Source: Alphaproteobacteria bacterium (GTDB lineage: Bacteria > Pseudomonadota > Alphaproteobacteria > UBA6615). From it: DNA of 64,000 nt. Location of the stretch: assembly GCA_028279245.1 (NCBI GenBank), contig JANQOE010000039.1, positions 66,916-130,915 of the forward strand, read 5' to 3'. Positions 21,822 through 47,248 of this stretch are shown here, one piece after another (position 1 is the first letter of the stretch; every line of letters starts with the position of its first letter). Below the pieces are notes generated by a model. It saw only the letters and a list, made by a program, of their open reading frames with translations. It had not been told where the DNA came from and did no database searches. The position numbers and the translations under genes were made by a program.

Positions 21822-21880
21822 ACTCTGATTGGCCTGACCGCACCTCATCATGGTGCCAAAGTACGAGGTTAACAGACTCA

Positions 21881-21920: not shown

Positions 21921-21953
21921 TGCGCTGGGCGCAACGTCCGGCTCACGAACTAG

Positions 21954-23579: not shown

Positions 23580-23583
23580 CTCT

Positions 23584-23811: not shown

Positions 23812-23867
23812 TGTCGTCGGATCCCTATCCCTTAGAAGACTGCTTCCCGGACAGCCGCCAGCCCCAA

Positions 23868-25391: not shown

Positions 25392-25396
25392 ATCGA

Positions 25397-26683: not shown

Positions 26684-26902
26684 AGCCCTGCGAGCCTAAG
26701 AAGCCATCAAAGGCTCAATGAAGCGTAAACGTTAACCTTTTGAAGGTTGTCGGTAGGGGCTAGGAATCACCCATTCGTTGGCCGCGACTTGAAGGGTCCC
26801 AAGGTCGCCAGGTCCAGGAACACACCGTACCCTAATCCTAGGAAGCCCTATGCACGTCAGGTGTCTGCAGTCCTCCGGACTTTCGACCCGTCCGATAGCC
26901 GC

Positions 26903-28867: not shown

Positions 28868-28938
28868 CGCACCTGGTCCGCGCGGGCAAAGGTAGTCGAG
28901 ATTTGCAGGAGTTCGTCAAACAATTGTTAAGCCTACGG

Positions 28939-30773: not shown

Positions 30774-30799
30774 ACTCGGAGATCCGGAACCGCCGCCAG

Positions 30800-31831: not shown

Positions 31832-31992
31832 TCTCTTCCTTCTTTCCAAGCTGAATACGGGCCTGAGCAAGTCGGGCGCCTGCTAGTCCGGTACGGTTAA
31901 TAGCTCACCGTTGGTTGACTACATCTTAATACTCAGCCGGTAGTCAAACCGGGCACAAAGAACTATCCGATGCCAAGCCAGGGGCTCGAAAC

Positions 31993-32958: not shown

Positions 32959-32964
32959 CCGGTT

Positions 32965-34467
32965 GTGGTCGTGGCGAACCAACCAATCAGGATCCTGCTC
33001 GTCGAAGACGACGAGGACGACTACATCCTAACGCGCGGTCTCATCCAAGAGATTGATGGAACCGACAGGTTCGAGTTGCGTTGGGTGGCCGACTACAAGT
33101 CCGGCCTCGAAGCTCTCGCACGCTGCGAGGCAGACATCTGCCTCGTCGACTATTATGTCGGCGGGAAAAACGGATTGGATCTGGTGCGGGAGGCCCGGCG
33201 AAATGGCTGCGACGTGCCGACGATACTTCTGACGGGAAGGGGCGATAGAGAAATAGACATCGCTGCGATGGAAGCCGGCGCGGCCGACTACCTGGAGAAA
33301 ACCGAACTTAGCCCACGTCTCCTGGAGAGAACAATTAGATACGCCATTGCAGAAGCAAAGGACCGTCAGACAATTCTAGAGCGCGGAGCTTTACTTCAGG
33401 CAACGCTAGATTATACGGGAGCCGGTATCGCGACATTTGATCGAGATATGAACCTGCTAGCTCATAACGATAGTATTCTAAGCATGCTCGGCATGACGGC
33501 TGACAGCCCAGAACAGTCAGCTGATCAGAAAGAATCGCGCATCGGCCAGAATATCTCAACAAGCCTCGACCTGGTTCGGCACACACGCGAAGGACGCGAG
33601 ATCATCGCGCGGAGTGGCAGAGTCATAGAAGTTCGCAGCAACAAGATGCCAAACGGTGGCCTGGCAACGATCTGTATCGACATAACGGACCGAAAGAAAG
33701 CGGAAGAAATCCTGCTCAAGTCAAAGAACGAAGCGGAAGCGGCGAGCCGGGCCAAATCAGAATTCCTTGCGAATATGAGCCACGAGCTTCGCACGCCGCT
33801 CAACGCGATTATTGGTTTCACCGAAGTCATGATGGCCCATAACACATCGGTCTCGGAGGAGTCGGCGCACAGTTATCTGGGACACATCCTTGATAGCGGT
33901 AAGCACCTTCTCGCTGTTATCAATGACATACTGGATGTCTCTAAGATCGAAGCCGGCAAGTTTGAGATCGACGAAATTGAACTGGATCCCGCAGAAGTCG
34001 TACTCAGCAGCATCCGGCTAATCTCGGAGCGAGCCAAGCAGTCGAACGTCACAGTCACGACTAGTACGCAACCAAGAACCCGCGAACTCTATGCCGACGA
34101 ACGAGCCCTAAAACAGATACTTTTGAACCTGCTCTCCAACGCCATCAAGTTCACGCCTGCTGGTGGTTCCGTTTCTGTAGACCTCGTCACCAGCGACTGC
34201 GGCAGCTTGGATCTTGTCGTGGCTGACACAGGCATCGGCATTGCGGAAGCGGACATAGAGAGGGTTTTGACACCATTCTACCAGATCCAATCGACGCTCT
34301 CCCGGTCGCACCAGGGCACCGGCCTAGGACTGGCCCTAGTTAAGTCGCTGGCAGAGCTGCACGGGGGTAGCGTATCGATCGCCAGCAAGGAGGGCGCTGG
34401 CACGCAGGTGCGGGTTCGTTTTCCCAAGCATCGGGCGAACCTCGCAACGCACCGCGCCTCAGCCTAG
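32965..34467 (+). CDS. Hybrid sensor histidine kinase (N-terminal REC, PAS, HisKA, HATPase_c)
   Basis: IRILLVEDDEDDYILTRGLI...D (REC), PAS with KMPNGGLATICIDITDRK, H-box MSHELRTPLNAIIGF, G-box GTGLGL. Confidence 0.85.
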   Translation: MVVANQPIRILLVEDDEDDYILTRGLIQEIDGTDRFELRWVADYKSGLEALARCEADICLVDYYVGGKNGLDLVREARRNGCDVPTILLTGRGDREIDIAAMEAGAADYLEKTELSPRLLERTIRYAIAEAKDRQTILERGALLQATLDYTGAGIATFDRDMNLLAHNDSILSMLGMTADSPEQSADQKESRIGQNISTSLDLVRHTREGREIIARSGRVIEVRSNKMPNGGLATICIDITDRKKAEEILLKSKNEAEAASRAKSEFLANMSHELRTPLNAIIGFTEVMMAHNTSVSEESAHSYLGHILDSGKHLLAVINDILDVSKIEAGKFEIDEIELDPAEVVLSSIRLISERAKQSNVTVTTSTQPRTRELYADERALKQILLNLLSNAIKFTPAGGSVSVDLVTSDCGSLDLVVADTGIGIAEADIERVLTPFYQIQSTLSRSHQGTGLGLALVKSLAELHGGSVSIASKEGAGTQVRVRFPKHRANLATHRASA

Positions 34468-34590
34468 CAGGTTCCCGACGAAGATCTAGCGGGCTTGAAG
34501 CGTCGCGAAGTCTAGACATATCGAATTCGTTAAGCCTGTTCGGCAGATACTCAAGGGGGACCATTCAAAAGCCCCTTGGGGGTCGAGGAC

Positions 34591-34896
34591 ATGCGTTACA
34601 TCATAACCTTGATGGCCACCGCACTGGCGGTTGCGGCGTGCAAGCAACACGACGAAGTTCTTCAAACCTGGGTTGGGGCACCTCAAGCCAAGCTACTCTC
34701 AATCTGGGGCGAGCCGACAGAGACCCATGTCGCGCAGGACGGCACCAAGATCCTGGTATACTCCAGGCCCGTGAGGAGCGGCGTGATCGTGCCAAGCAGC
34801 GGCCAAAGCACCGCCGGCCCGGCCGCGTGCGAAACAGTCTTCATGCTGGAGCAAGGACGGGTCACCGGGCACACGTCGGGGGCCGGCTGCCAGTAG
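34591..34896 (+). CDS. Hypothetical lipoprotein
   Basis: ORF 34576..34896; ATG 34591 with gagga SD; MRYIITLMATALAVAAC lipobox. Confidence 0.5.
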   Translation: MRYIITLMATALAVAACKQHDEVLQTWVGAPQAKLLSIWGEPTETHVAQDGTKILVYSRPVRSGVIVPSSGQSTAGPAACETVFMLEQGRVTGHTSGAGCQ

Positions 34897-35003
34897 GCTC
34901 ACCAATGGCCAACCGGCTTGCTGCAGTTCAGCTCACGCATCGGGAACGACTCACGTCACCGACCAGCCCCTAGCGGGCCAAGAAAACACGGCTGAAGAGC
35001 AAG

Positions 35004-35057
35004 CTGGGGTGGCTGATGGGACTTGAACCCACGACCCCCAGATCCACAATCTGGTGC
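35004..35057 (-). repeat. 54-nt 3' fragment of a tRNA-His gene (candidate att-site direct repeat)
   Basis: 51/54 identity to the 3' end (anticodon stem to CCA) of the intact tRNA-His at 47171..47248, same orientation; two of the three differences form a compensatory T-stem base pair (G-C to T-A). Confidence 0.6.
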
Positions 35058-35564
35058 TAAACCGCAGATTTCTGCGGTTTTCAGCGCGATGTGTTGAAAA
35101 TATGTTGCATCCACGGGCGCTTCAGCTTTTACACCGACCATCCGATCGCTGGGCACACACTGTGCGCGCGGCTCCAACCCGGCATAGCTTGAAGTCTGCT
35201 TTGACCACTACACGTCGAGTAGCGGACATCATCGGGGCGCCAGTCCGCACCTCCGCCGTGCACTCGGGCGCTAGCCGCAACGACCGAACAGGAGGTCAAT
35301 CTTTCGGGAACAGGGCGTCTTATATTATGGCGCTTGTCCTGCTCGGCTTCCTGCTTGCGTCTCTGCAGGTTCATTATTTCACTCGGCCGTACCGGCCCGA
35401 CGCGACCCTCACGCGGCACTACAATCTGCGAATAAGGGACGAACTGGTCGACAGAGAAATGCACCTTCGTTACCCGCTCGCGGGCATAGCTCAGCGCCCT
35501 GTCGACAGGAACACCGGACGCCTCCAAGCTGCGCAGCTTGCCCTCGAGATCCGTCAGTTGGAAA

Positions 35565-35629
35565 GGGACAAGGCCAGTTCCGAATACGACATCGAGAAGC
35601 GCGGCGACATCTACAGGGAGATACAGCGC
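35565..35629. repeat. 65-bp inverted duplicate of the 3' coding end of the SBP gene at 42123..43736
   Basis: Exact match to the reverse complement of 42252..42316 (encodes DKASSEYDIEKRGDIYREIQR in both places). Confidence 0.55.
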
Positions 35630-35686
35630 GTTCAAGACAAAAGTTGGCATAGATGCCGACCCTGTCGCCGGCGCGCCCCTGACGGG

Positions 35687-37087
35687 TCAGTGGGTTCCGT
35701 CGATCACCGCACCCTGCTCCTTGAGGCGTTCGCGCAAGGCGCCGACCTGAACCGTGCGGATGTCCTCTAGCTGATTGGCCGATGATGCCAGAGCCGCCGC
35801 CGTGCCCACCGCCTGCCCCATCGCCATGCAGGTCCCCATGACGCGGGCGGACCCGTGCGCCTCGCGCGTCGCCGACAAACAACGGCCGGCCAACAGGACA
35901 TTCTTGACGTTGCGCGGAATCAGGCAGCCGAGGGGAATGTCGTAAGACCCTCCGTCCTTGATCGGCTGGCGCAATTGATACCTTCCAGAGCCGTGGATAT
36001 CGACGTGATGGGCGCCCTTGGCGACGCCATCGTCGCGCTTCTTCGCATTCATGACATCATCGAAGTTGAGGACATAGTCACCGAGGATGCGCCGCGTCTC
36101 CCGGATACCGATCCGTGGCGCGATGCCAGAGAACTGGGCGTCTTCGAATCCGGGAACCCGCTTGGCCAGGAACCTCGAGCAAATCCACACCTGCTCCATG
36201 AGTTCGGGCAAGGTCTGCGTCAGTTTTTCGGTATCGGTCGCATCGACATTGGCGATGCGGGTGGTGTTGCAGTAGATCTCCCGCCGTTTCATTGATACCG
36301 GCCCGATGCCCATCAGGGCGGTCGGATACAATTCGCCTGAGGCGATGCCCGCGCTGATCAACGGCCCCTTGGCAACGAAGAACACCTTGGGGTAACCCTG
36401 TTCGACCAGACGCCGCAACTGCTCCTCTCGGCTGATGTTGTCGTAGTAGGGATTTTCCGCTACCGCGACGTTTTCCGGCTTCTCGGCGACGAACGACATT
36501 AGGCGTTCGGTATCCACGCCCATCATGCGAAAGACCAGGCTGACCGGCTGCAGAGCGCCTTCCTCGCCGCCCATCTCGTGCGGCGCGCCGGCCAGGTGGG
36601 CCAGATCGCCGTCGCCCGAACAGTCGACGAAGACCTTGCCGGTCACCAGCGTGCGCTGGTTCTTGTTGAGCAGGACGACACCGGTCACCTTGCCGTCCTG
36701 GACGACGACGTCCTCGGCAAAGGTATACAGCAGGAGCTTGATCCCCGCCCGCATCACGACATTCATGACGGCCAGCTTCATGACCTCGGGATCGACACAG
36801 ACGACCCAGATCGTTCGCCAATCGTAGAAGGCACCGACGTAACCACCCATCTTGTCACATTCGTCGAACAACTCGCGGGCAACGCCGCCGACCACCCATT
36901 CGCCGCGGGTGTTGAGGCATCCGTCAATCGGCAGGCCGCTGATCATCTCGCCACCGATCATCGGCCCGGCTTCGACCAGCAGTGTCCGCGACCCGTTGCG
37001 CGCCGCGCTGACCGCCGCCGCCACGCCCGCGGCACCCCCGCCAATCACGACGACGTCGTAGTCTTCCTGCCGCAACCGCTGCGCCAT
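35687..37087 (-). CDS. FAD-dependent oxidoreductase (FAD_oxidored/PF12831-like)
   Basis: N-term YDVVVIGGGAAGVAAAVSAARNGSRTLLVEAGPMIGG dinucleotide-binding motif. Confidence 0.8.
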   Translation of the reverse strand: MAQRLRQEDYDVVVIGGGAAGVAAAVSAARNGSRTLLVEAGPMIGGEMISGLPIDGCLNTRGEWVVGGVARELFDECDKMGGYVGAFYDWRTIWVVCVDPEVMKLAVMNVVMRAGIKLLLYTFAEDVVVQDGKVTGVVLLNKNQRTLVTGKVFVDCSGDGDLAHLAGAPHEMGGEEGALQPVSLVFRMMGVDTERLMSFVAEKPENVAVAENPYYDNISREEQLRRLVEQGYPKVFFVAKGPLISAGIASGELYPTALMGIGPVSMKRREIYCNTTRIANVDATDTEKLTQTLPELMEQVWICSRFLAKRVPGFEDAQFSGIAPRIGIRETRRILGDYVLNFDDVMNAKKRDDGVAKGAHHVDIHGSGRYQLRQPIKDGGSYDIPLGCLIPRNVKNVLLAGRCLSATREAHGSARVMGTCMAMGQAVGTAAALASSANQLEDIRTVQVGALRERLKEQGAVIDGTH

Positions 37088-37105
37088 TGCCGAACTCCTC
37101 CAGCA

Positions 37106-37861
37106 CTAATCCGCGATATCGAAGAAGCGGATGCGAATCTGTTCCATAAGCTGGTTCATAGCCACCTCCGCCCCGCGGCGGTCACGCCGGAAAAGGGCGT
37201 CGTACAGCTCCATCCGGCATTGCAGCGCATCGACATGGTGGGCCGGCGTGACAACGCGCTTGCGGATTGTGCGCCACATGTGGCCGGTTCGCATCTCCCA
37301 CAGGTCGCTGATGACCTTGATGAAGATGGTGTTGCGTGACGCCGCGGCGACAAGACGATGGAACTCGAACCGATGAGCTTCAGCCGCCGGACCGTCCACG
37401 TCCTTCTTCATGGCTTCAAGGCAGCGCGCCAACTCCGTCAGCTCTGTAGTCGTGATGTTGTCGGCGGCATCGGCAGCCGCGGCGCTTTCAATGACGATGC
37501 GGGCCCGGAATTGCTCCAACGGACTGGGGCCGGACACGTCCAGCCGCTCTGCGCTGCCGAGTCCCTTTCTTTCAGCCTCCTGCGATACGTAGGTGCCGTC
37601 CCCGACGCGCACCTCGATCAAACCCATGGTTTCCAGCACGATCATGGCTTCGCGGACCGTGGTCCGGCTGACCTGGAACTGGCTGGCCAATTCCCTCTCC
37701 GCCAGCAGCCGTGAGCCGGGAGGCAGCGGCAGTTCGCGAATTTGGCTGGCGATCTGGCGTGCCACGGCGAGGTACAGCCGTTGTTGATCCAACCGCTTGA
37801 ATCGCGGTACCGACGGGCTCGCATCGGCACCCGTTGATGTCCGTGTCGTAGTGGTTTTCAT
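37106..37861 (-). CDS. GntR family transcriptional regulator (FadR/FCD subfamily)
   Basis: ORF 37106..38113, start refined to ATG 37861; HTH ...ELASQFQVSRTTVREAMIVLETMGLIEVRVGDGTYV plus FCD C-terminal domain. Confidence 0.8.
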   Translation of the reverse strand: MKTTTTRTSTGADASPSVPRFKRLDQQRLYLAVARQIASQIRELPLPPGSRLLAERELASQFQVSRTTVREAMIVLETMGLIEVRVGDGTYVSQEAERKGLGSAERLDVSGPSPLEQFRARIVIESAAAADAADNITTTELTELARCLEAMKKDVDGPAAEAHRFEFHRLVAAASRNTIFIKVISDLWEMRTGHMWRTIRKRVVTPAHHVDALQCRMELYDALFRRDRRGAEVAMNQLMEQIRIRFFDIAD

Positions 37862-38001
37862 GGCATGTCCTTTGCCGCTCATTCCCAAAGGTTGGACCGA
37901 TAGACAGGAATAGCTTTCCGGCACCAGGCCAATAGCCCGCCGTCCGCTTCCAACGCGTGTGAACCGGTGCAAATCCAAAGGAAAGTGGGTCTGTTCACCA
38001 T

Positions 38002-39018
38002 CTAACGCTCCGCAAAATGGCAGGCCACGGCATGGCCGGAGCTCTCGCCGGTCAGGAGTGGCTCCTCCTCGGCGCAAATGGCCGGGTTGTCTTTCATCGT
38101 CCGTAGCGGACAACGGGTGTGGAAACGGCAGCCCGACGGCGGATTGTCGGGATTCGGCATGTCGCCGGACAGGACGACGCGCGAACGCGTCCTCTCCCGC
38201 TTCGGATCCGGCACCGGAACCGCCGACAGCAACGCCTGGGAATAGGGGTGGAGCGGATTGGCGTAAAAGGCGGTCTTGTCGGCCAACTCGACGATCTTGC
38301 CCAGATACATGACCGCGATCTTGTCGGAGATGTAACGCACCACCGCCAGGTCGTGGGCGATGAAGATCATCGACAGCTTCATTGTCTGCTTGATCTCCAG
38401 AAGCAGGTTGACGACCTGTGCCTGGATCGACACGTCGAGCGCGGAGATCGGTTCGTCGGCGACCAAAAAATCGGGATCGAGGGCAAGGGCGCGCGCGATG
38501 GCGATGCGTTGTGCCTGCCCACCCGAAAACTGATGAGGATACCGCACCCCGACGGTCGGGTTGAGGCCAACAAGTTGCAGGAGTTCGGCGACCCTTTCTC
38601 GGCGCTCCGCCCGGGTTCCGATGTGGTGAATTTCCAACGGCTCGCCGATGATCTGCGATACGCGCATCTTGGAATCGAGCGAGCTTCGCGGATCCTGAAA
38701 GATCATCTGCATGCGGCGGCGATAGGGCCGCATTTGTTTTTCCGGCATGCCGGCAATCTCGACTCCATCGAACCTCACCGAACCGGCTGTCGGCGGCGTG
38801 ATCTGAAGAATGGCGCGGCCCGCAGTCGATTTACCGGAGCCTGACTCGCCGACCAATCCAAGGGTCTCGCCGCGCTTCACTGAAAACCCGACGTTGTCCA
38901 CCGCGCGGACGCTCGCGAACCGAACCGACAGGTTCGATACTTCCAACAATGACTGCCCCGGGTCGGGCGCGCCGGACGGCGCATTGGCTGCATGGCCGGC
39001 TTCATGGATTTGCGTCAT
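38002..39018 (-). CDS. Oligopeptide/dipeptide ABC transporter ATP-binding protein (DppF/OppF-like)
   Basis: Walker [10 protein letters not shown], signature [16 protein letters not shown]-terminal oligopeptide-ABC Cys motif CRFHTRCP. Confidence 0.9.
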
Positions 39019-39031
39019 TGCCCGTCCCCTG

Positions 39032-40174
39032 TCATCCTCCGACGGCCGCGGAGGAGCGTATCTGCTTTACAAGCCCAGGATCCCCAAGATCCGATTGCCA
39101 GTCGGTCGCCAGGAGCCAGCCGCCCTCGGTCACTTCCTGGCGCCCCCAGCAGCGAGTCAGGTGGCCTTCATTGGTATCGGGCGCCAGCAGCAGGTCTGGC
39201 TCCCGTTCCGCGCAGATATCGCGGCGGTAGGCGCACCGCGGCTGGAAACGGCAGCCCTTGGCCGACTTCGTCGCATCCGGCGGCACGCCCTCGATGGGCA
39301 CAAGCTTGTCGAGCGCCTCGCCTTCCAGCCGCGGAACCGAACGCAGCAAACCCCAGGTGTAGGGCATCGACGGATGGTCAAACAGGTCGTCCGTCGTCGC
39401 GGTCTCCACAACCCGGCCTGCATAGAGCACGTAGACCCGCTGGGCCATGCCGGCCACCACGCCCAGGTCGTGGGAGATCAGCACCATGGCAGTGCTCAGT
39501 TTGCTTGCTAGGTCTTTCAGGAGCTCCAGGATCTGCGCCTGAATGGTGACGTCGAGCGCCGTGGTCACTTCGTCGGCCAGAATGACATCCGGGTTGCACG
39601 AGATCGCGATCGCGATCATGACCCGCTGTCGCATGCCGCCGGAAAATTGATGGGGATACCAGGTCAGACGGTCTTCCGCGCCCGGGATGCCAACCAGTGT
39701 CAGCAGCTCGACAACACGCTCGCGCACCTCGTGCTTGGGCAGTTCCTCGTGCGCCCGGATGGCCTCCGCGATCTGCTCGCCGACGGTCAGCACCGGGTTG
39801 AGCGCCGCCATCGGATCCTGAAAGGCAAGGGCGATCTTATTGCCGCGCACCTCGCGCATGGTGGCTTCGTCGGCCTGGAGGAGATCGCGCCCCTCGAACA
39901 ACACGCGTCCCGAGTCGATGCGGGCGGTGGCTTTTGGAAGGAGCCTGAGGATCGAGCGCACCGCCACCGACTTGCCGGAACCAGACTCGCCTACCAGCGC
40001 GATGGTCTCTCCCTGCTGCACGCACAGGGACAGGTTCTGGACCGCCCAGACCACGCCCTGTTTGGTGGCAAAACTGATGCTTAGGCCCGAGACGTCGAGC
40101 AACAGCGGCTTACTATTCTCGCTCACGTCATGTCCCGTCCCGGCGCCGCGGCCGGCTGTCTGCTGTGCTCGCAC
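39032..40174 (-). CDS. Oligopeptide/dipeptide ABC transporter ATP-binding protein (DppD/OppD-like)
   Basis: Walker A GESGSGKS, signature [16 protein letters not shown]-terminal CRFQPRCAY motif. Confidence 0.9.
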
Positions 40175-41023
40175 TCATCCCCGCGGATCGGTGTAGTCCC
40201 GCAGGGCATCGGCCAGGAGGTTGAGTCCAAAAACAGCGATAAGAATCGCCGCACCCGAGAAAGCCGACAACCACGGCGCCGTCTCCAGGAAGGCGAAACC
40301 GGTTCGCAGCACCCCGCCCCAGCTCGAGGTCGGCGGTTGAACGCCGAGCCCGAGAAATGACAGGGCCGCCTCGGTAAGAATGGCGAAACCCACATGCAGC
40401 GACGCCATGACCATGACCGGTGTCGTCACATGCGGCCAGATGTGGCGAAAGATCAGGCGCTTCGGTTTGGCGCCGAGGGCGCGCGCCGCGGTGACGAAAT
40501 CCCGCTCCCGCACTGTCAACACCTGTCCCCGGGTCAGGCGCGCGAACACCGGCATGTCGGCAACGGCGATGGCAATGACGATCGTAAACGTTCCGGGACC
40601 GAGCGCGGCCGTGATGCCCAGGGCCAGCAGGACTGATGGAAACGCGAACAGGGCGTCCATGACGCGCATCATCGCTTCGTCCACCAGGCCCGACGCGTAG
40701 CCCGAGAGCAGGCCCAGGAACGACCCGAGTACCGCGGCCAGGCCGACCGACGCCACGCCGACCAACAACGCGACTTGGCTGCCGTGGATCAACCGCGACA
40801 ACAGGTCACGCCCCAAGTGGTCGGTGCCTAGCAGGTGATCGAGGGACGGCGGCTGCAAGACCACCGTGTAGTCCTGCGCGTTCGGATCCATCGGTGCGAT
40901 CACGTCCGCGAACAGGGCGGCGCAGACAATCACGACGATAATGCCCACCGCCACCGCGGACCGCGGCGTCGACACGAATTCCCGGAAGGCGCTGAATCGC
41001 GGCCCCAGCATCAATCGGTCCAT
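40175..41023 (-). CDS. ABC transporter permease (DppC/OppC-like)
   Basis: ORF 40175..41083; start refined to ATG 41023 to avoid 50-nt same-strand overlap; BPD_transp_1 permease. Confidence 0.8.
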   Translation of the reverse strand: MDRLMLGPRFSAFREFVSTPRSAVAVGIIVVIVCAALFADVIAPMDPNAQDYTVVLQPPSLDHLLGTDHLGRDLLSRLIHGSQVALLVGVASVGLAAVLGSFLGLLSGYASGLVDEAMMRVMDALFAFPSVLLALGITAALGPGTFTIVIAIAVADMPVFARLTRGQVLTVRERDFVTAARALGAKPKRLIFRHIWPHVTTPVMVMASLHVGFAILTEAALSFLGLGVQPPTSSWGGVLRTGFAFLETAPWLSAFSGAAILIAVFGLNLLADALRDYTDPRG

Positions 41024-41033
41024 GGCCGAGCTC

Positions 41034-41984
41034 TCACGCATAGCGGACCCGTGGGTCGAGGCGCGCATAGACGATGTCAGCAAGCAGGCTGGTCAGCAGC
41101 ACGGTCAGCGCCAAGAACATCATGACCGCCTGAATCATCGTGAAGTCGCGAAAAAAGATGGAATCGACGGCGAGCCGGCCCAGTCCGGGTATGGAAAACA
41201 CCACCTCGACGGTCGCGGCGCCGCCGAAGGTCTGGCCGACCTGCAGGCCGATCAGCGTCACCACCGGAAAGATGGCATTGCGAAACGCATGCTTGTAAAG
41301 AACCACCCGCTCCGTCAGGCCCTTGCTTCGGGCGGCAACTATGTACTCCTCTCCCAGAACCTCGATCACCGAGGCCCGGACCTGGCGGATCAGAACACCT
41401 GTCAGTCCCGAGGCCAGCGCGATTCCCGGCATGATCATCAGGCGCAGCGCCTCAACAGGGTTTTCCCAGAAGGGCACGAACCCTGATGGCGGCAGCCATC
41501 GCAGCCACACCGCAAAAACCAGCATCAGCATGATGCCGAGCCAGAACCCCGGCGTCGCGACCCCCAGGATCGCAAACAGCGTCCCGCCTGTGTCAACCAT
41601 GGTCCGCTGGCGAACCGCGGAAATGACCCCAACAGGTACCGAGACTAGGATGGACAGGGCCATGGCGAAAATTGCCAGCTGGATGGTCGGAACGGCGCGC
41701 GACACGATGGCTGGCCCGATGTCTTCCTGGGTCCGCATGGAGATGCCGAAGTCGCCGCGCAGCGCGTCGGTCAGCCAGTTCAGGTATTGAATGTACAGAG
41801 GCTGGTCGAGACCGAGGCTCGCCCGCAGCTCCTCGTAGCGCTGGGAATCGGCGCCGCCTTCCTCGCCGAGAATGGCAGCGGCGAGATCGCCGGGCAGCAC
41901 ATTGACGATGGAGAACGAAATAATGCTGACCAGGATCACTACGATGCAGGTCGTGAAGGCTCGCCGCGCTAGGAACTTTGCCAC
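41034..41984 (-). CDS. ABC transporter permease (DppB/OppB-like)
   Basis: MAKFLARRAFTTCIVVILVSIISFSIVNVLPGD typical DppB N-terminus. Confidence 0.9.
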   Translation of the reverse strand: MAKFLARRAFTTCIVVILVSIISFSIVNVLPGDLAAAILGEEGGADSQRYEELRASLGLDQPLYIQYLNWLTDALRGDFGISMRTQEDIGPAIVSRAVPTIQLAIFAMALSILVSVPVGVISAVRQRTMVDTGGTLFAILGVATPGFWLGIMLMLVFAVWLRWLPPSGFVPFWENPVEALRLMIMPGIALASGLTGVLIRQVRASVIEVLGEEYIVAARSKGLTERVVLYKHAFRNAIFPVVTLIGLQVGQTFGGAATVEVVFSIPGLGRLAVDSIFFRDFTMIQAVMMFLALTVLLTSLLADIVYARLDPRVRYA

Positions 41985-42122
41985 CGCGGCCTCGTGGTCA
42001 TGTCAATGGGCGCGTCATGGAGACGGATATCGACCGGCTTGCTGCCAGCCCGTTGGCACAGCCGGTCAACACCCTTATCCCCAACCGCCGACCAGCGCCC
42101 TGTTCGGCGGGCCGTCACCGTC

Positions 42123-43736
42123 CTACTGCTTCAGCCAGAGATAGCGTGAATCGTAGCCGGCACCGATTTCCATGCCCATCAGGGCGGCGGTGTGCGCCAT
42201 CAAAAGTGGCGTGCGATAACCGATAAGGTGATAGGCATCCTTATGGAGAATGCGCTGTATCTCCCTGTAGATGTCGCCGCGCTTCTCGATGTCGTATTCG
42301 GAACTGGCCTTGTCCCACAAGGCATCCACCTCTGCATTGGAATAGGACGCCCAGTTCGAGGACGATCCCGTTTTCGTCTCCCAGCGGAGCATCGGGTCAA
42401 GAAGGCTTGAGTTCCGATGAGCGAGTGCTTCGAAGTTGCCCTTGCGGCCATCGTCGACCCACGGCGTACGGTCCAGCAGTTCGATGTTTAGCTCGATGCC
42501 CACCTGGCCCAGCATGCCCTGAACAATTTCCAGCGGCTGCACGTCCGTCGGCCGGTTGATCACCTTGACGTTCAGCTCTATCCCGTCTGGGTATCCCGCC
42601 TCGGCAAGCAACTGCCTGGACTTTTCCGGGTCAAATTCGTAACGGGGCAAGGATTCGTCATAGCCCGGCATGCCCGGATACGAACCCCAATAGTATTGAG
42701 CGGTGCCGCTGCCGAAACCCAGTGCCGCGGCCATCGCATCCCGGTTGATGGCGTGCTGGACCGCCTGACGCAGCTTCACGTCCTTGGAGAACGGAGACTG
42801 AGAATCAGGGTTGGAGGAAATGTAAAAGCTGGGGGCGCCGACGAAGCGGGGTGCTTCAAAGACGTTGATGTTGGAATCCCGGCGCAGGCCCTCGATATCC
42901 TGCGGCAAGATACGCTGCACGAGGTGAACGTTGCCCGCCCGAAGTTCCAGCGTGGACACCGATGTGTCGGTAATCAGGCGTACGACGTATTCGTCGGCAT
43001 AAGGCAGCGGCTTGCCGTCGGCGCCCATCTGCCAGTGGTTGTCGAACTTCGTCAGTTCGATCCGGTCGTCTGGAATCCACCTTGCGACCTGATATGGTCC
43101 GCTACCGACCGGAGACCGGCCGAACTCGACCTCGCCTTTGCCCTCGACCGCCGCCTTGGACACCATATAGACGTTCAGAGGGTTGGCCGGCGACAGCATC
43201 ATCTGCAGCAGCGGCTGCGGCGCGCTGAGCTTCAGTTCGATCGTCATGGGATCGACGACCGTGATGGTCTCGATCGCTTCGACCGTCGTTGTGCGCCCCG
43301 AATCCTGGTGGTCGCGTGCGCGTTCCAGGTTCCATTTCGCCAGGTCAGCGTCCCATTTGGAACCGTCGTGGAAGACCACGCCGTCGCGAAGCTTCATAAC
43401 AACGGTGGTGGGATCCATGACCTCGTAGGTTGTCGCTAAGCCGGGGACGATGTCGTACTCGCCGTTTTCGACGGAGGTGTACTGAACATTGAACAGCGAA
43501 TCGAAAAACAGCGAGTAGTTGGTATCGCCCGCATTCGACAGATGCGGATCAAGCGTCGCCAACGCAAGCCACGCGGCCTCGACGATCTTTCCGCCGCGGG
43601 TCACGGTATCCTGAGCGGCGGCGTTCTGCGGGACCGTCGCGAACGCCAACAGCGCGAACGTCATGCCCGCTGCCATCGAGAACCTTGTCACGCGGCTCCG
43701 CAACGAACCGGTTCCTGATCTGCCATGTCGAAACAT
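42123..43736 (-). CDS. ABC transporter substrate-binding protein, family 5 (peptide/opine/nickel type)
   Basis: ORF 42123..43769; start refined to ATG 43736 (ggaggga SD; signal peptide MAAGMTFALLAFATVPQNAAAQD). Confidence 0.9.
   Translation of the reverse strand: MFRHGRSGTGSLRSRVTRFSMAAGMTFALLAFATVPQNAAAQDTVTRGGKIVEAAWLALATLDPHLSNAGDTNYSLFFDSLFNVQYTSVENGEYDIVPGLATTYEVMDPTTVVMKLRDGVVFHDGSKWDADLAKWNLERARDHQDSGRTTTVEAIETITVVDPMTIELKLSAPQPLLQMMLSPANPLNVYMVSKAAVEGKGEVEFGRSPVGSGPYQVARWIPDDRIELTKFDNHWQMGADGKPLPYADEYVVRLITDTSVSTLELRAGNVHLVQRILPQDIEGLRRDSNINVFEAPRFVGAPSFYISSNPDSQSPFSKDVKLRQAVQHAINRDAMAAALGFGSGTAQYYWGSYPGMPGYDESLPRYEFDPEKSRQLLAEAGYPDGIELNVKVINRPTDVQPLEIVQGMLGQVGIELNIELLDRTPWVDDGRKGNFEALAHRNSSLLDPMLRWETKTGSSSNWASYSNAEVDALWDKASSEYDIEKRGDIYREIQRILHKDAYHLIGYRTPLLMAHTAALMGMEIGAGYDSRYLWLKQ
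42252..42316. repeat. Parent copy of the 65-bp inverted repeat (inside SBP gene 3' end)
   Basis: Reverse complement identical to 35565..35629. Confidence 0.55.
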
Positions 43737-44000
43737 CGTGTTCTCCCTCCTGGTTTGGTGGCGGATCACCGCCGCCCGTGCCCTGCTCTAACTGTCAGCG
43801 GGGTCAGTAATCCCCCGCTTTTCGTTTTTCACTCAACTCAGCCGCTCCGGGCCGCGTACTGCCTCCTTGAGAAGGAACCCAGCTACGGCGTGAAAAAAAG
43901 CTTAGCCCGTCCAATGGTTGGACCAATATAGTGCCATGCCAAACGTGCGATCAAGGGGCGCCTGCCTGAGTCCATTGCCAAAGGACCGACCATTCGCTAG

Positions 44001-44026
44001 TGTCAATTTATCTGACAATTTGACAT
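44001..44026. promoter_or_regulatory. Candidate GntR-type operator in divergent promoter region (TGTCAATTTATCTGACA + CAATTTGACA)
   Basis: TGTCA-N7-TGACA inverted repeat with overlapping direct repeat CAATTT, between SBP (minus) and TauD (plus) starts. Confidence 0.3.
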
Positions 44027-44138
44027 TTCTGGCAACTTCCGGGCCAGATTGCGCATGGCCTCGCAAGATACTGCCAGCGCGTCAAAAAACCTCGTTGCAG
44101 GCCGCAACCCTGCGGCTTTCTATACCTGAGGTGACAGA

Positions 44139-45011
44139 ATGACCCTTTCTCACAGCTACGATGTACGCGCCCTGTCCCCGTTTCTTGGGTTGGAGGTGCG
44201 CGGCTTGGCCTTGTCCGCAGACATGTCGGACGAGAGTTTTTCGGTATTGCACGATGCTCTCGTGCGCGGCGCCGTCGCCGTCGTGCGGGACCAGCAATTA
44301 GGCCCCGAGGACTGCAAGGCCATTGGGCGGAGGATTGGTAAGTTGGAACCTCACTCGATCCTGCACTACCGCCATCCCGAGCACCCAGAACTCAGCTACA
44401 TCACGAACGTCGATAAGGACGGCAACGTGGACGACTATGGTGCCAACGAACGTGCGTCGGGCTGGCATTCGGATGGCTCTTTCAAGGAGAATCCCGACGC
44501 TGTGGCCTTTTTGGTGTCGGTCGCCGCACCATCCCGAGGCGGCCCAACAGAGTTCACCAGCATGGTTCGCGCGTGCGAAACACTGCCCGACGACCTTCGC
44601 CAACGCATTCACGGCATGAAGGCGTTTCACCTGCGCGGTGCGGGGTGGAAGGGCGAGGCGAAGACGCCGCCTCTAACGGAGCAGCAGAAGGCGACGGGCG
44701 AATTCAACGGTGCAGAGCATCCGATTGTCTTGGTGCATCCTTGGTCGAAGCGCGAGACGCTTTTCGTAAATCCAAGCCATACCAACAGCGTGGTGGGGTT
44801 GGACAAGGCCGAGAGCGACGCCCTGCTCGACGCGCTGTACGAGCATTCGATCAATCCCGAATTCCAGTACCACCACCAGTGGCGCCCAGGTGACGTGGTG
44901 TTTTGGGATCAGCGCTGCGTCATGCACCGCGCCGGTCGCGGAACGCCGAGCGGGGAGAAGCGGATCATGTTGCGCACCATGGTCACTTGTGAACCGCATC
45001 ATCTGAACTGA
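44139..45011 (+). CDS. TauD/TfdA family Fe(II)/2-oxoglutarate-dependent dioxygenase
   Basis: ...HSDGSFKENPDAVAFL... (HxD) and C-terminal ...HRAGRG...R; gaggtga SD. Confidence 0.85.
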   Translation: MTLSHSYDVRALSPFLGLEVRGLALSADMSDESFSVLHDALVRGAVAVVRDQQLGPEDCKAIGRRIGKLEPHSILHYRHPEHPELSYITNVDKDGNVDDYGANERASGWHSDGSFKENPDAVAFLVSVAAPSRGGPTEFTSMVRACETLPDDLRQRIHGMKAFHLRGAGWKGEAKTPPLTEQQKATGEFNGAEHPIVLVHPWSKRETLFVNPSHTNSVVGLDKAESDALLDALYEHSINPEFQYHHQWRPGDVVFWDQRCVMHRAGRGTPSGEKRIMLRTMVTCEPHHLN

Positions 45012-45089
45012 TACGCTTAAGCGGTTCATCGGCTGCGTAGGTCGATAGGGGGCCGTGTGTACTGGGCGAACTGATGAGGTGAATGAACA

Positions 45090-45824
45090 GTGAAGCCGGC
45101 AGCTTCATCGAAAGCGGAACCCACGCTTGTCCCCCTCGTCCGCACCAAACGACTCTACGAGCAGATTGCCGACGCAATCGTTCAGATGATGCACGAGAAC
45201 GACATGCAACCCGGCGATCGCATCCCGCCCGAACTGTCTTTGACGCGGCAGCTCGGGGTCAGCCGCCCGGCGGTGCGCGAGGCGATGATCGCGCTTGAGA
45301 CTGCGGGCCTAATTGAGGTCCGAATCGGTGACGGCACCTATATCCGGCGTATTCCCGGCCCGGATTCTTCCTTGCCATGGTCTCGCCCCGACGATCCCGG
45401 CCCAGGTCCCCGTGAACTGTACGAGGCCCAGGAAATCCTCGAAACCACAGCTGCGGCCTTGGCTGCCAAAACGATGACACCCGACGCCATCGATCGTCTC
45501 GAGTTGATCGTCGATAGGATGGAAAGCCAGCTGAAGGAAGGGGTACCGCCTGTCGACGAAACCATGGCGTTTCATGTCGGGCTTGCGCACGGCTGCGGCA
45601 ACACGGTCATCGCGGGTTATCTGCGTGACCTGTGGGCGAGACGGCATCAGGAACCGATGTGGACCACCATGCGCGACCACAACACCGTGCCGGACGACCT
45701 TTGGGACGGACTCGACATGCGCCGCAAGATGATTGCGTGCCTTCGCGCCAGGGACGGACGGGGCGCCCGCACCCTGATTCGTCGCCATTTCCGGCGTCGG
45801 CGAAAGATATACTTCTCGGAATGA
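45090..45824 (+). CDS. GntR family transcriptional regulator (FadR/FCD subfamily)
   Basis: HTH ...LTRQLGVSRPAVREAMIALETAGLIEVRIGDGTYI almost identical recognition helix to regulator at 37106..37861. Confidence 0.8.
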   Translation: MKPAASSKAEPTLVPLVRTKRLYEQIADAIVQMMHENDMQPGDRIPPELSLTRQLGVSRPAVREAMIALETAGLIEVRIGDGTYIRRIPGPDSSLPWSRPDDPGPGPRELYEAQEILETTAAALAAKTMTPDAIDRLELIVDRMESQLKEGVPPVDETMAFHVGLAHGCGNTVIAGYLRDLWARRHQEPMWTTMRDHNTVPDDLWDGLDMRRKMIACLRARDGRGARTLIRRHFRRRRKIYFSE

Positions 45825-45917
45825 GGCCGCGTTCCCTGAATTTCCGTGTTACTGGCGAATCGTTTCCTATTCCCCGGCATTCCGGCTCTATGACTGGCTG
45901 ACTCACCCTCCTGTGGT

Positions 45918-46349
45918 GTGGGGCGCATAATGTGTTCTATTGCGAATTTCCAACGCCTTGTGCAACTCGTCCCGAGCAGCATGAACAGGATCACTATGTG
46001 TCAAGGTAATTTTACGTTGATGACGGATGACCTTCCACGGGAGCTCGTCAGGTTCGGCGACAAGATATCGTTTGTTCATTTCCGAGATGTTCGTGGTGTC
46101 CCAGGTAACTTCGTGGAAACTTGGCATGATTGTGGCCAGACTGAGATGCTTGCCTGTATGAGGGCCTACAAAGAGATTGGATTTGACGGTGTTCTTCGAC
46201 CTGATCATGTACCGACCGTAGAAGGAGACAGAATAACGATGCCGGCTATTCGGCGTTCGGACGCCGCCTTTGCTAGCACAGACAAAAAGAAGAGGGCTTG
46301 TCAGCCTCGTAAGACTTGGGCTGCCTATCAACAAGTCGGATTGTGTTGA
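45918..46349 (+). pseudogene. Mannonate dehydratase (UxuA) C-terminal fragment
   Basis: ...FGDKISFVHFRDVRGVPGNFVETWHDCGQTEMLACMRAYKEIGFDGVLRPDHVPTVEGD... matches only the C-terminal third of UxuA (~390 aa full length). Confidence 0.55.
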
Positions 46350-46380
46350 CCTGCCACGGGTCATTCGGCGATGAGAGCGG

Positions 46381-46623
46381 TCAGTCCATTAACAATCCCC
46401 CATTCACATCAATGAACTCGCCGGTGAGATAGGCAGCCTGTTCGCTGCACAAGAAAGCGGCTATTGGGCCAATATCACCGGGCGTCCCACGTCGCATCAC
46501 AGGGATCTCCATACCTGGCAACAGATCCGTCGTTCGCGGATAGCCCATTACGTCATTGAACGCGGTTTCGCCGATACTTCCAGGCAGGATGGCGTTGACG
46601 GTGATGCCTTTGGGGCCAAACAC
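46381..46623 (-). pseudogene. Short-chain dehydrogenase/reductase (SDR) C-terminal 80-aa fragment
   Basis: GITVNAILPGSIGET...RRGTPGDIGPIAAFLCSEQAAYLTGEFIDVNGG is the SDR C-terminus only; N-terminal 170 aa missing (region occupied by DctP fragment). Confidence 0.5.
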
Positions 46624-46643
46624 AGGTCTTCGAGAGCGAATTC

Positions 46644-47087
46644 ATGAAGGATATCGCCGACAAGATTGCAGCGGAGCAGAGCGTGCGTATCTTGGGCATT
46701 GCTATTTTGCCATCGCGAGCGTTCTTCACCAAAAAGAAAATGGAAGCCGCGTCGGACTTCTCTGGCCTTAAGATTCGCTCGCCGCAACTCGACAACTGGC
46801 TTGCGTCCTATTCTTCGCTCGGGGCAAATCCGACGCCAGTGAATTGGAACGAGGTGTCCCTGGCTCTGCAGACCAGCTTGGTCGAAGGTGGTCACGGGTT
46901 GCCAGCCGACACTAAACCCAACAACTGGCACAAGGCCGCGCCGTACATAACCGACCTCGAGGACATGTTATACGACCGTGCATGCGCAGATGTCTTGTCT
47001 AGACTCAAGAGTAGACATTCCGGCCTTAGGATGATTGATCAGGTGATTCGACGCCATCCGATTGACCAACCCGGCGCTCTTCGCTGA
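46644..47087 (+). pseudogene. TRAP DctP-family substrate-binding protein internal/C-terminal fragment
   Basis: ...GLKIRSPQLDNWLASYSSLGANPTPVNWNEVSLALQTSLVEGGH... DctP motif block without signal peptide/N-terminal domain. Confidence 0.55.
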
Positions 47088-47170
47088 GGCGCATTTATAA
47101 GTAGATCAGTCCATTAGACGCCGAAACTCAGACAGGACATCAGCTTCAATGATGCCATTCTGTGGGAGGT

Positions 47171-47248
47171 TGGGGTGGCTGAGGGGACTTGAACCCCCGG
47201 CCCCCAGATCCACAATCTGGTGCTCTAACCAACTGAGCTACAGCCACC
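47171..47248 (-). tRNA. tRNA-His (anticodon GTG), with encoded G-1 and CCA
   Basis: Reverse complement folds as cloverleaf: acceptor GTGGCTG/CAGCCAC, D-arm GCTC-AGTTGGTTA-GAGC, anticodon loop TTGTGGA, T-arm GGGGG-TTCAAGT-CCCCT, discriminator C, CCA. Confidence 0.85.

Follow-up and report, generated by a model that had tools for sequence, protein, structure and literature searches.

In the window, by which we mean the whole 64,000-nt stretch of DNA analysed, the partial copy of the tRNA-His gene on the 3' side of the intact gene looks like an integration-type scar, rather than a chance repeat or the result of decay in place. It is a feature of an ordinary, known kind, an island remnant that has no integrase. 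Sequence comparison with relatives places the scar at an internal boundary: the 12.2 kb that the first-pass annotation had taken for the island is the tRNA-nearest third of a 36.6-kb variable stretch (10563–47170). As a whole, we consider it probable that the copy is the att scar of a tyrosine-integrase-type insertion, the latest at a hotspot, whose recombinase has since been deleted. Neither a recombinase nor any remnant of one was detected, and the role of an integrase as the maker of the scar is thus suggested by analogy.

ARAGORN finds a single tRNA in the window, tRNA-His(GTG), and an Rfam scan over 33–49 kb gave nothing besides this gene. The span of 47171..47248 assigned to it earlier is acceptable, since base 47248 is the genome-encoded G-1. 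The gene occupies its ancestral position, downstream of the aminotransferase, anti-sigma, and ECF-sigma genes, and 47 of 80 species-representative loci have a tRNA-His adjoining the aminotransferase gene.

A pattern search with the 3' 54 nt of the gene returned two sites only, both on the same strand: the gene itself (0 mismatches) and the partial copy (3 mismatches), while 100 dinucleotide-preserving shuffles gave 0 matches. An independent repeat search lists the same pair, with 94% identity and a spacing of 12166 nt. The copy, its orientation, and its three substitutions had been described correctly, but its position (35004..35057) was off by one: base 35004 (C) differs from 47170 (T), and base 35058 (T) agrees with 47224. 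Read in the tRNA sense, the copy comprises 3 nt of the D-stem 3' strand, A26, the anticodon arm, the variable loop, the T arm, the acceptor 3' strand, and C73-CCA; its 5' edge lies 4 nt before the anticodon stem, and the other edge is the exact tRNA 3' end. The three differences are a variable-loop C to T and, as first noticed from the sequence, a change of the T-stem pair G50-C64 to T50-A64 that keeps the pairing. When three random substitutions were placed in 54 nt, two of them hit one internal stem pair and kept it paired in 0.7–0.9% of the simulated trials. Retention of the T-stem pair is therefore rare by chance, which makes decay of a dead copy in place unlikely, and together with the shuffles this upholds the earlier view that the repeat is not a random duplication.

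The 54 nt of the fragment occur, 54/54 identical, within whole tRNA-His genes of five metagenome loci from related lineages (L091, L094, L098, L100, and L101), and across 19 metagenome loci the repeat sequence was found solely inside tRNA-His genes and at no tRNA-unrelated site. Along with the compensatory differences, this indicates that both copies come from working tRNA genes. Which member of the pair is foreign, the intact tRNA or the fragment, cannot be told, so that the proposed origin of the fragment as the attP-derived copy of a donor lineage does not stand as a conclusion. The standard model takes the displaced fragment to be the old 3' end of the host gene, with the new 3' end coming from the island (PMC4383910). 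The intact tRNA is 77/77 identical to that of the sister genome (L085), which likewise points the other way, away from the fragment as the donor's copy. A scan of viral contigs revealed no attP-like copy.

According to the mechanism that we propose, a tyrosine-integrase-type element would have inserted into tRNA-His, with the anticodon arm through to the CCA end as its target, and the partial copy would be the surviving far-end att scar. The element would cross over within the tRNA gene and bring along a tRNA 3' part of its own, so that one whole gene is rebuilt and a partial copy is left at the far end. This insertion would be the latest in a series of additions at a single hotspot, where new DNA enters at the tRNA end and the older polysaccharide, kinase, and TRAP genes are pushed outward, until 36.6 kb came to lie between tRNA-His and its ancestral neighbour otsA. 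Later, the inner 12.1-kb module would have lost its recombinase, along with any transfer genes, by deletion; its ends would have been left as rearrangement debris, with four gene fragments and a GC of 0.53 beside the tRNA, and its centre as a self-contained GntR-regulated cassette with a Dpp-type ABC importer, a TauD-family dioxygenase, and a PF12831 flavoprotein. We infer that this cassette was the cargo of the integrating element.

Pfam searches confirm the gene content first read from the translations, with a substrate-binding protein (SBP), a DppBCDF-like importer, an FAD oxidoreductase, a TauD-family enzyme, and two GntR regulators (Table 1). The cassette is 91.7% identical in nucleotide sequence to contig JAJFIY010000098.1 (L082) and 69–81% identical, in three aligned blocks, to an ENA scaffold (L083); the second regulator is counted as part of the conserved cassette because it is found in L082 too. 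Compared with L082, the cassette genes have equal lengths, no internal stops, and a dN/dS of 0.15. All nine are thus intact, full length, and under purifying selection, and the description of the element as fixed and decaying, which fits the mobility backbone, does not extend to the cassette with its conserved putative operator palindrome. This palindrome, GTCCAATGGTTGGAC, lies between the divergent TauD and SBP genes and is identical in L082 (position 3850) and L083 (position 788); a second, variant copy is found upstream of the first GntR gene in all three carriers. It is likely to be a GntR-family operator.

NCBIfam gave no equivalog for the FAD-dependent oxidoreductase, both ATPases are OppF/OppD-like at scores below cut-off, and the TauD-family enzyme reaches 160.8 bits against the taurine dioxygenase model, below its 313-bit cut-off. 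The closest homologues of the SBP show 94%, 81%, and 78% identity, and the next at most 58%. The cassette presumably imports and oxidises a small peptide-like or amino-acid-derived compound.

Table 1. Features of the tRNA-His region (window coordinates; L082 is contig JAJFIY010000098.1).
Feature	Position	Strand	Basis or remark
otsA, trehalose-6-phosphate synthase	8673..10037	plus	Pfam Glyco_transf_20
Outer variable region	10563..35004		Pfam, synteny, GC3
attR-like partial tRNA-His	35005..35058	minus	54 nt, 3 substitutions; homology stops exactly at CCA end
Spacer, non-functional, 608 bp	35059..35666		Far end of module
Catabolic/uptake cassette, nine intact genes, 10.2 kb	35667..45839		blastn, gene tables
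FAD-dependent oxidoreductase, PF12831, 466 aa	35687..37087	minus	Pfam, E 3.9e-110
GntR/FCD regulator 1, 251 aa	37106..37861	minus	Pfam; start set from L082 comparison
Putative operator, GTCCAAAGGTTGGAC-like	37883–37897		Adjoins GntR/FCD regulator 1
ABC ATPase, Dpp/Opp-type, 338 aa	38002–39018	minus	Pfam ABC_tran + oligo_HPY
ABC ATPase, Dpp/Opp-type, 364 aa	39032–40126	minus	Pfam ABC_tran + oligo_HPY
Permease, OppC_N + BPD_transp_1, 278 aa	40175–41011	minus	Pfam
Permease, BPD_transp_1, 316 aa	41034–41984	minus	Pfam
Family-5 periplasmic substrate-binding protein, 537 aa	42123..43736	minus	Pfam SBP_bac_5, E 7.7e-69
Palindrome GTCCAATGGTTGGAC	43909..43923		Divergent TauD/SBP promoter region
TauD/TfdA-family Fe(II)/2-oxoglutarate dioxygenase, 290 aa	44139..45011	plus	Pfam, E 8.5e-59
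GntR/FCD regulator 2, 244 aa	45090..45824	plus	Pfam
Pseudogene stretch, GC 0.53	45840..47170		Pfam; composition
UxuA C-terminal fragment	45918–46349	plus	Pfam profile positions 217–330 of 352
SDR C-terminal fragment	46381–46623	minus	Pfam profile positions 161–235 of 236
DctP internal fragment	46644–47087	plus	Pfam profile positions 107–199 of 286
attL-side repeat copy	47171..47224	minus	3' 54 nt of tRNA, D-stem 3' strand to CCA
Intact tRNA-His, anticodon GTG	47171..47247	minus	ARAGORN; Rfam RF00005, 70.8 bits

The cassette begins and ends at gene boundaries, and it has different surroundings in each of its three carrier genomes. In L082, its neighbours are an SDF symporter gene and, some 200 bp away, an intact IS6-family element (inverted repeats GGYRTTGACACGTCAA; a transposase with DDE_Tnp_IS240), with no tRNA there; the cassette therefore need not have been cargo of an element integrated at tRNA-His. 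A possible, though less probable, alternative is that the remnant had already decayed when the cassette arrived, through homologous recombination or through IS-mediated transposition or cointegration, in which case the scar would still record an integration and the cassette would be its neighbour by accident. The setting in L082 agrees with this, as do the core-like GC3 of the cassette, the unrelated gene fragments that abut both of its ends in the window, and the second TauD gene that follows the FAD gene in L082 and L083, where homology with the window ends 20 bp past the FAD stop codon. However, the window holds no IS6 inverted repeat or transposase remnant, no target-site duplication was identified around the cassette, and loss or rearrangement of the cassette once integrated accounts for the same facts.

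We think it unlikely that the 54 nt are not an att site at all but the remnant of a second complete tRNA-His gene, foreign or duplicated, whose 5' part was deleted. Any foreign tRNA gene would also give homology ending at CCA, the allele is present elsewhere as whole genes, and deletions are common in the region, with its four truncated genes. Nevertheless, the 5' edge falls where it does in anticodon-centred att blocks, and a random deletion would end within 4 nt of that point perhaps 10% of the time; the fragment lies on the 3' side of the resident tRNA and points the same way, with a synteny break exactly at the tRNA 3' end, which is the Islander geometry. The acceptor 3' strand of the fragment, CAGCCAC, also fits the resident 5' strand, despite the wide variation of acceptor stems among relatives.

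Integration followed by deletion, the reading we prefer, involves the debris at both ends of the inner module. The spacer next to the scar, in which no Pfam matches were found, shows codon-like periodicity and begins with a perfect hairpin (35059–35080) that abuts the 54 nt. It contains the C-terminal fragment of an orphan 571-aa protein family (~35324–35578, minus), which matches protein P0362 (49% identity, E 2.8e-15), the sole match among 1.84 billion representatives, and, in inverted orientation, a 69-nt piece copied from the SBP gene of the cassette itself (35565–35633, plus; 68/69 identical, with sharp edges). At the other end, the tRNA-proximal graveyard of three gene fragments was recovered by Pfam as UxuA, SDR, and DctP, with no matches in the other reading frames of this stretch; just 83 bp separate the DctP fragment from the tRNA and leave no space for an integrase remnant. 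Domains of integrases, excisionases, phages, and conjugation systems are absent from all ORFs and stop-free frames, in accordance with the first-pass annotation.

Somewhat more unlikely than a truncated second tRNA-His gene is that the module remains mobile as a cis-mobilisable element (CIME), with attL and attR kept and with excision or co-transfer by a tRNA-His-targeting integrase acting in trans. Two att-like copies with 94% identity over 54 nt and no recombinase of its own correspond to the published definition of a CIME (PMC5704250), and on a relative's contig (L102) an ORF directly after a tRNA-His has a weak match to DUF6538, an integrase N-terminus (E 0.0018, below the family cut-off). 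Against this, no helper element lies within the 64 kb, both ends are debris and the arm-type sites have therefore probably been lost, and the viral contigs scanned held no attP-like copy.

In relatives, the DNA downstream of tRNA-His is not conserved. Two deeper-branching ones, L086 and L089, have a compact arrangement of tRNA-His, 0.5–1.7 kb, and otsA, the conserved downstream neighbour of the tRNA in compact genomes, against which the window carries its extra 36.6 kb. About 0.5 kb past the tRNA, L086 continues as window position 10566 running down to 4956, and L089 runs from window position 10556 through a 1.7-kb stretch with an IS to the tRNA (matched otsA-side blocks: L086 8005–10462 with window 10566–8113; L089 7756–9950 with window 8384–10556). 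No related genome was found with the same gene order and no tRNA fragment. It should be noted that the clade sample consists of four genomes, with a best species-representative match of 72% aa, and that the compact state is not certain to be ancestral.

The outer variable region contains a polysaccharide cluster (GT4, WecG, Wzz/BY-kinase, NDP-sugar enzymes, methyltransferases, and GT2), three PAS histidine kinases, MBOAT, TRAP DctPQM, and a small lipoprotein gene. It is missing from L086 and L089, and its left 8 kb is common to the sister genome (L088). The expected compositional deviation of 35–47 kb was not borne out: cassette GC3 (0.776) equals that of the core (0.76–0.78), and it is the supposed left flank, the outer region, that looks foreign (0.69). 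In the order of events that we infer, the outer part would be older than the inner module. No tRNA fragment was found at the outer edge, at about 10.56 kb, and so a single integration event has left a direct mark. The sister genome is collinear with the window over 13.3 kb (76.6% nt), up to a break that falls exactly at the tRNA 3' end (L085 13242, window 47170), and the tRNA-adjacent 8 kb of the sister matches neither the inner module nor the window DNA left of 35005.

That the 36.6 kb is ancestral and was deleted in L086 and L089, the tRNA fragment being an unrelated local duplication, is very improbable: one deletion would be as parsimonious as one insertion if these two formed a sister pair, which an OtsA identity of 76.4% between them suggests, and the sister genome likewise has about 49 kb between otsA and tRNA-His, but L086 and L089 share the same two breakpoints although the distance between them is about the same as that of either to the window and its sister, the outer region is deviant in GC3, the tRNA-nearest DNA is completely different in the window and its sister, and a local duplication cannot explain the compensatory tRNA allele.

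Overall, the closest likeness is to the tDNA islands collected by Islander (Hudson, Lau & Williams 2015, PMC4383910; sublocation classes of Williams 2002), a set of 3919 islands, of which 3760 carry a 3' tDNA fragment and 2083 an anticodon-centred site. Like them, the window has an intact tRNA and, downstream of it, a 3' fragment in the same orientation; the block spans anticodon arm to CCA, as in the anticodon-centred class, and the enclosed DNA is absent from relatives. It differs in having no integrase gene, for which Islander's filter would reject it, in cargo of host-like composition, and in that the marked segment is part of a larger region whose outer edge has no fragment. CIMEs and tandem accretion at tRNA 3' ends (Guedon et al. 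2017, PMC5704250) resemble it in the tandem of the module with older foreign DNA at the same tRNA, but no helper ICE or IME is seen for the module, and the older outer DNA lacks an att site. As in the Klebsiella tDNA hotspots with their "virgin" downstream context (bioRxiv 10.1101/2020.11.02.365908), the tRNA 3' end is separated from a conserved gene, here otsA, by variable DNA whose content changes with each genome compared; some Klebsiella islands also have repeats without an integrase, whereas we are dealing with uncultured alphaproteobacteria and four clade genomes. The likeness to IS6/IS26-family-associated modules is one of proximity: a single intact IS copy is seen about 200 bp from the cassette in L082 and none in the window, with no evident composite-transposon structure. 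Finally, the cassette resembles Dpp/Opp/Gsi-type peptide importers and TauD-family dioxygenases in its family-5 SBP, two permeases, two oligo_HPY ATPases, and TauD-fold enzyme, but all its NCBIfam equivalog scores are far below cut-offs, and it adds a PF12831 flavoprotein and two GntR/FCD regulators.

The window holds a single tRNA gene, tRNA-His(GTG) at 47171–47247 on the minus strand (ARAGORN; Rfam RF00005, 70.8 bits), with an encoded G-1 at 47248 opposite a C73 discriminator, which is the canonical bacterial form of tRNA-His. In many alphaproteobacteria G-1 is absent and A73 is present; by this distribution, G-1/C73 would fit a Rhodospirillales-like lineage. The 3′-terminal 54 nt of this gene occur at exactly two sites, both on the minus strand: as an exact match at 47171–47224 and with three mismatches (51/54 identical) at 35005–35058. 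The same query gave no match in 100 dinucleotide-preserving shuffles (0 expected by chance). The same-orientation copy with three substitutions described in the first-pass annotation is thus borne out, at coordinates one base from the 35004–35057 given there. Read in the tRNA sense, the fragment extends from 4 nt 5′ of the anticodon stem to precisely the CCA end, and outside both repeat ends the sequences of the two copies are unrelated. No further tRNA-His copies were found by blastn-short, with the tRNA and the fragment as queries, in the window, in the two pieces of a sister genome (L085 on the tRNA side and L088 on the otsA side of ENA ERZ26051965 contig_6) or in two deeper relatives (L086, GCA_905168875.1, and L089, ENA ERZ28669063). 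A perfect hairpin, AAACCGCAGA-TT-TCTGCGGTTT at 35059–35080, abuts the fragment directly on the island side; it was not called by the consensus terminator scan and could act as a terminator for the rightward-reading left-flank genes or be what remains of an att arm.

Compared with the intact copy, the fragment has a variable-loop C replaced by T and the T-stem pair G50-C64 replaced by T50-A64. When three random substitutions were simulated, two fell on one internal pair with pairing kept in only 0.7–0.9% of cases, which argues that the fragment did not diverge as dead DNA; both repeat versions derive from working tRNA genes. The fragment allele is found, 54/54 identical, within the complete tRNA-His genes of five other loci (L091, L094, L098, L100 and L101), the last of which has ECF-sigma and anti-sigma genes beside the tRNA, as in the window. 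A scan of JGI metagenome contigs for the T arm and acceptor stem returned 19 loci, each of which is a tRNA-His gene or the part of one at a contig end; occurrence of the repeat at sites unrelated to tRNA, named beforehand as evidence against an island, was not seen. An exact scan of IMG/VR viruses with a degenerate 54-mer, as a search for attP, gave 0 matches. The only public contig with window-identical proteins, a 3.9-kb Logan contig of SRR20820731 (L001/L084), begins at about 47220, in the repeated part of the tRNA, probably owing to an assembly break at sequence common to the tRNA-His genes of the sample.

The intact gene carries the allele of the sister genome (C47, G50-C64), whose tRNA-His is identical to it at 77/77 positions. 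The tRNA-His of L086 combines T47 with G50-C64 and is, like that of L089, only two positions off the fragment; the T50-A64 pair is found only in other lineages. As to the direction between donor and host, either copy may be the foreign one: a crossover in the anticodon loop would make the fragment the displaced end of the host gene, yet the intact gene is the sister allele.

Among GTDB species representatives the best match has 72% amino acid identity, too far for downstream synteny, and only the adjacency of the aminotransferase gene and tRNA-His was informative; it is found in 47 of 80 loci, which places the tRNA-His at an old position. Four useful genomes came from a larger protein collection. 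The sister genome (84% identity to the window for OtsA, 90.5% for sigma and 95% for GlnA) is collinear with the window from 60356 to 47170 at 76.6% nucleotide identity, and collinearity breaks exactly at the tRNA 3′ end; the following 8 kb have no match anywhere in the window. In L086, the right flank and the tRNA are followed by about 0.5 kb and then by window 10566–8113 and 8046–4956; in L089, window 2812–10556 is followed by 1.7 kb with an IS and then by the tRNA and window 47171–58804. In L089, nothing but an IS encoding a DDE_Tnp_1/DUF772 transposase separates otsA from tRNA-His (9950–11661), so that the same interval attracts insertions there too. At a further locus, P0122/L087, the context is unrelated and uninformative.

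Relative to the compact arrangement of L086 and L089, the window has 36.6 kb of extra DNA (10563–47170) between tRNA-His and otsA, and the 12.2 kb originally proposed as the island is only the tRNA-nearest third of this region. The expected empty tRNA-His site is seen in these two relatives for the 36.6 kb; at the position of the inner 12.1 kb, the sister genome has different DNA. L086 and L089 are about as distant from each other as each is from the pair formed by the window and its sister; the outgroup L109 (OtsA 61%) has no tRNA-His nearby and gives no information on polarity. Judged from these sequences, the compact state is likely, but not proven, to be ancestral. The tRNA-His/otsA interval is a long-lived hotspot of gene gain in a poorly sampled alphaproteobacterial clade.

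The supposed left flank (10563–35004) is itself accessory DNA. These outer 24.4 kb encode a polysaccharide cluster (GT4, WecG, Wzz/BY-kinase, NDP-sugar dehydratases, C-methyltransferase, CmcI-type methyltransferase and GT2), three PAS histidine kinases, an MBOAT protein and TRAP DctPQM, with a GC3 of 0.69 versus 0.76–0.78 in the core on both sides. The first 8 kb are common to the sister genome, where they lie directly after otsA (L088) and the distance from otsA to the tRNA is about 49 kb. By blastn-short, the outer edge (near 10.56 kb) has no tRNA fragment. Among the three kinases, two hybrid ones (21954–23579 and 32965–34467) are paralogues with about 79% nucleotide identity around the HisKA box.

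The content of the inner module is listed in the table below.

Features between the two tRNA-His repeats, with the palindrome sites in the window and in two further copies of the cassette
Feature	Position	Strand	Length	Source
Spacer	35059–35666		608 bp	
FAD-dependent oxidoreductase, PF12831	35687–37087	−		Pfam/NCBIfam
GntR/FCD regulator (internal)	37106–37861	−		Pfam/NCBIfam
ABC ATPases (two), oligo_HPY tail	38002–39018, 39032–40126	−		Pfam/NCBIfam
Permeases (two)	40175–41011, 41034–41984	−		Pfam/NCBIfam
Family-5 binding protein	42123–43736	−		Pfam/NCBIfam
TauD-family dioxygenase	44139–45011	+		Pfam/NCBIfam
Second GntR/FCD regulator	45090–45824	+		Pfam/NCBIfam
UxuA C-terminal fragment	45918–46349			Pfam
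SDR C-terminal fragment	46381–46623			Pfam
DctP middle fragment	46644–47087			Pfam
Palindrome sites, window	43909–43923, 37883–37897			
Palindrome sites, L082	3850, 9876			
Palindrome sites, L083	788, 6785			

No integrase, excisionase, transposase, relaxase or phage domain was detected with Pfam and PHROGs in any ORF or stop-free frame between the repeats, in agreement with the first-pass annotation that integration and conjugation genes are gone. A search of the stop-free frames of 34.95–35.70 and 45.8–47.1 kb for integrase remnants (Pfam, E up to 10) returned only the UxuA, SDR and DctP fragments, and the same search with PHROGs gave nothing either. The DctP fragment ends 83 bp from the tRNA; with only 26% identity, it is not a copy of the left-flank DctP. 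In the spacer, about 35324–35578 (minus strand) corresponds to the C-terminal 80 residues of P0362, an orphan protein of 571 aa (49% identity across 84 aa, E 2.8e-15). P0362 was the sole match to this ORF among 1.84 billion representative proteins and belongs to no Pfam or PHROG family. At 35565–35633 lies an inverted 69-nt piece of the cassette binding-protein gene (42248–42316; codons for DKASSEYDIEKRGDIYREIQR), 68/69 identical and with sharp edges, which points to a local and recent inversion, duplication or gene conversion beside the FAD gene. At this end of the cassette, relatives carry a second TauD gene.

The nine intact genes form a unit that recurs elsewhere. Homologues of the binding protein have 94%, 81% and 78% identity, and then none is above 58%. 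The 94% homologue is encoded on a 13-kb contig of GCA_021774525.1 (L082). This contig matches 35667–45839 at 91.7% nucleotide identity over 10.27 kb, with the limits of the match 20 bp beyond the stop codon of the FAD gene and 15 bp beyond that of the GntR gene, and differs outside these limits. Beyond the GntR end, L082 carries an intact IS6-family element of about 0.8 kb (858–1650; DDE_Tnp_IS240 transposase, inverted repeats GGYRTTGACACGTCAA), the single IS copy on the contig, and a dicarboxylate symporter; beyond the FAD end there is a second, convergent TauD gene, and no tRNA was found on the contig. The stretch between the IS and the cassette (L082 1692–1864) contains about ten densely spaced CAGGGAAAT/ATTTCCCTG motifs. 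The 81% copy (L083, an ENA scaffold) also has the second TauD gene and lacks the divergent TauD–GntR pair. The window has no remnant of the second TauD gene of L082 and L083 and no trace of the IS6 element, either as an inverted-repeat match (up to 3 mismatches) or as transposase similarity. A plasmid search with the flavoprotein (tblastn) gave a best identity not above 38%. The genome of L082 may be a close or a distant relative of the source: the database has no aminotransferase homologues between 81% and 100% identity and no OtsA homologues between 84% and 100%, and, as these two genes are linked, one missing contig would explain both absences.

Each of the nine genes is as long in L082 as in the window and free of internal stops, with dS = 0.21 and dN/dS = 0.15. 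The window, L082 and L083 share an identical 15-nt palindrome, GTCCAATGGTTGGAC, ahead of the binding-protein operon, and in all three a variant precedes the internal GntR gene (general form GTCCAA-NGG-TTGGAC, or GTCCAA-N3-TTGGAC); the palindrome probably serves a GntR/FCD repressor as operator. At 44001–44017, a second palindrome, TGTCAATTTATCTGACA, has only a non-palindromic match with 3 mismatches in L082 (3696) and none in L083. The composition of the cassette (GC 0.622, GC3 0.776) equals that of the core (GC 0.61–0.62, GC3 0.76–0.78), so that the anticipated deviation in GC and codon usage at 35–47 kb is not seen. Intact genes, low dN/dS, the conserved palindrome and core-like GC3 together indicate that the cargo is a maintained, self-regulated unit and that only the mobility backbone has gone; of the description “fixed and decaying”, the loss of mobility holds and the decay of the cargo does not. 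No cassette gene reached an NCBIfam equivalog cut-off (TauD 160.8 versus 313 bits, GsiB 160.5 versus 594, DppA 101.5 versus 1005, OppF 376 versus 540), and membership of the TauD (taurine/sulfonate), Dpp (dipeptide) or Gsi (glutathione) systems was not found.

The geometry of integration into a tRNA gene and the extent of the repeated block, from the anticodon arm to CCA, lead us to read 35005–35058 as a far-end scar. It would date from the latest integration, at a hotspot where earlier DNA was already present; the recombinase would have been lost after integration and both module ends then rearranged. Because the cassette is core-like in composition and has an IS6-linked context in L082, its separate arrival is possible. 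In a related organism (L102, MAAC01018046.1), an ORF about 60 nt after tRNA-His (MSSPWKHPKHGNYYIRISIPERLR...), within 435 nt downstream, is cut by the contig end. Its match to DUF6538, the domain with which alphaproteobacterial island integrases usually begin, is weak (E 0.0018, below the cut-off), and the ORF may be part of a live tRNA-His-targeting element.

Two further readings seem improbable, judged from sequence: that the module moves by a foreign tRNA-His integrase, as a cis-mobilisable element (CIME), and that the cassette encodes an undescribed pathway carried by several vehicles. On the first, both att sites would be usable, and a tRNA-His-specific integrase of another element in the population could excise or co-transfer the module. 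On the second, the Dpp-type importer, TauD-family dioxygenase, PF12831 flavoprotein, two GntR/FCD regulators and operator would make up a pathway for a peptide-like or sulfonated compound. The cassette would spread among alphaproteobacteria of sea or soil by more than one vehicle, here a tRNA island and in L082 an IS6-linked context.

Taken together, our results confirm the original observation and partly support its interpretation. The main value is for annotation: the repeat of a tRNA fragment can mark far less than the full extent of a variable region (12 kb here versus 36.6 kb by relatives), and the lack of an integrase together with gene debris does not imply decaying cargo. A conserved, regulated uptake/oxidation cassette, to which NCBIfam equivalogs assign no substrate, is also flagged in three different genomic contexts. 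The current understanding of genomic islands is unchanged.

Among known systems, the module is neither an ICE nor a prophage, as T4SS, relaxase and phage structural or replication Pfam domains are absent from 35–47 kb, and it is no IS6-family composite or pseudo-compound transposon, as no IS copies or inverted repeats bound the cassette. By composition, the cassette does not deviate from the core; deviation is confined to the outer region (GC3 0.69) and the pseudogene stretch (GC 0.53). By comparison with relatives at the same tDNA, an island as an absent segment is found for 10563–47170 and not for 35005–47170. Of the features used by Islander, the tRNA with a same-orientation 3′-side fragment is present, the extent of the fragment fits the anticodon-centred class of crossover sublocations, and an integrase between tDNA and fragment is lacking by Pfam in ORFs and stop-free non-coding frames. 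CIMEs are defined by retained attL and attR and by lost integration and transfer genes (PMC5704250), and on sequence criteria the module corresponds to this definition. A decayed tRNA-adjacent island without an integrase, inside a larger hotspot, is a well-known kind of feature.
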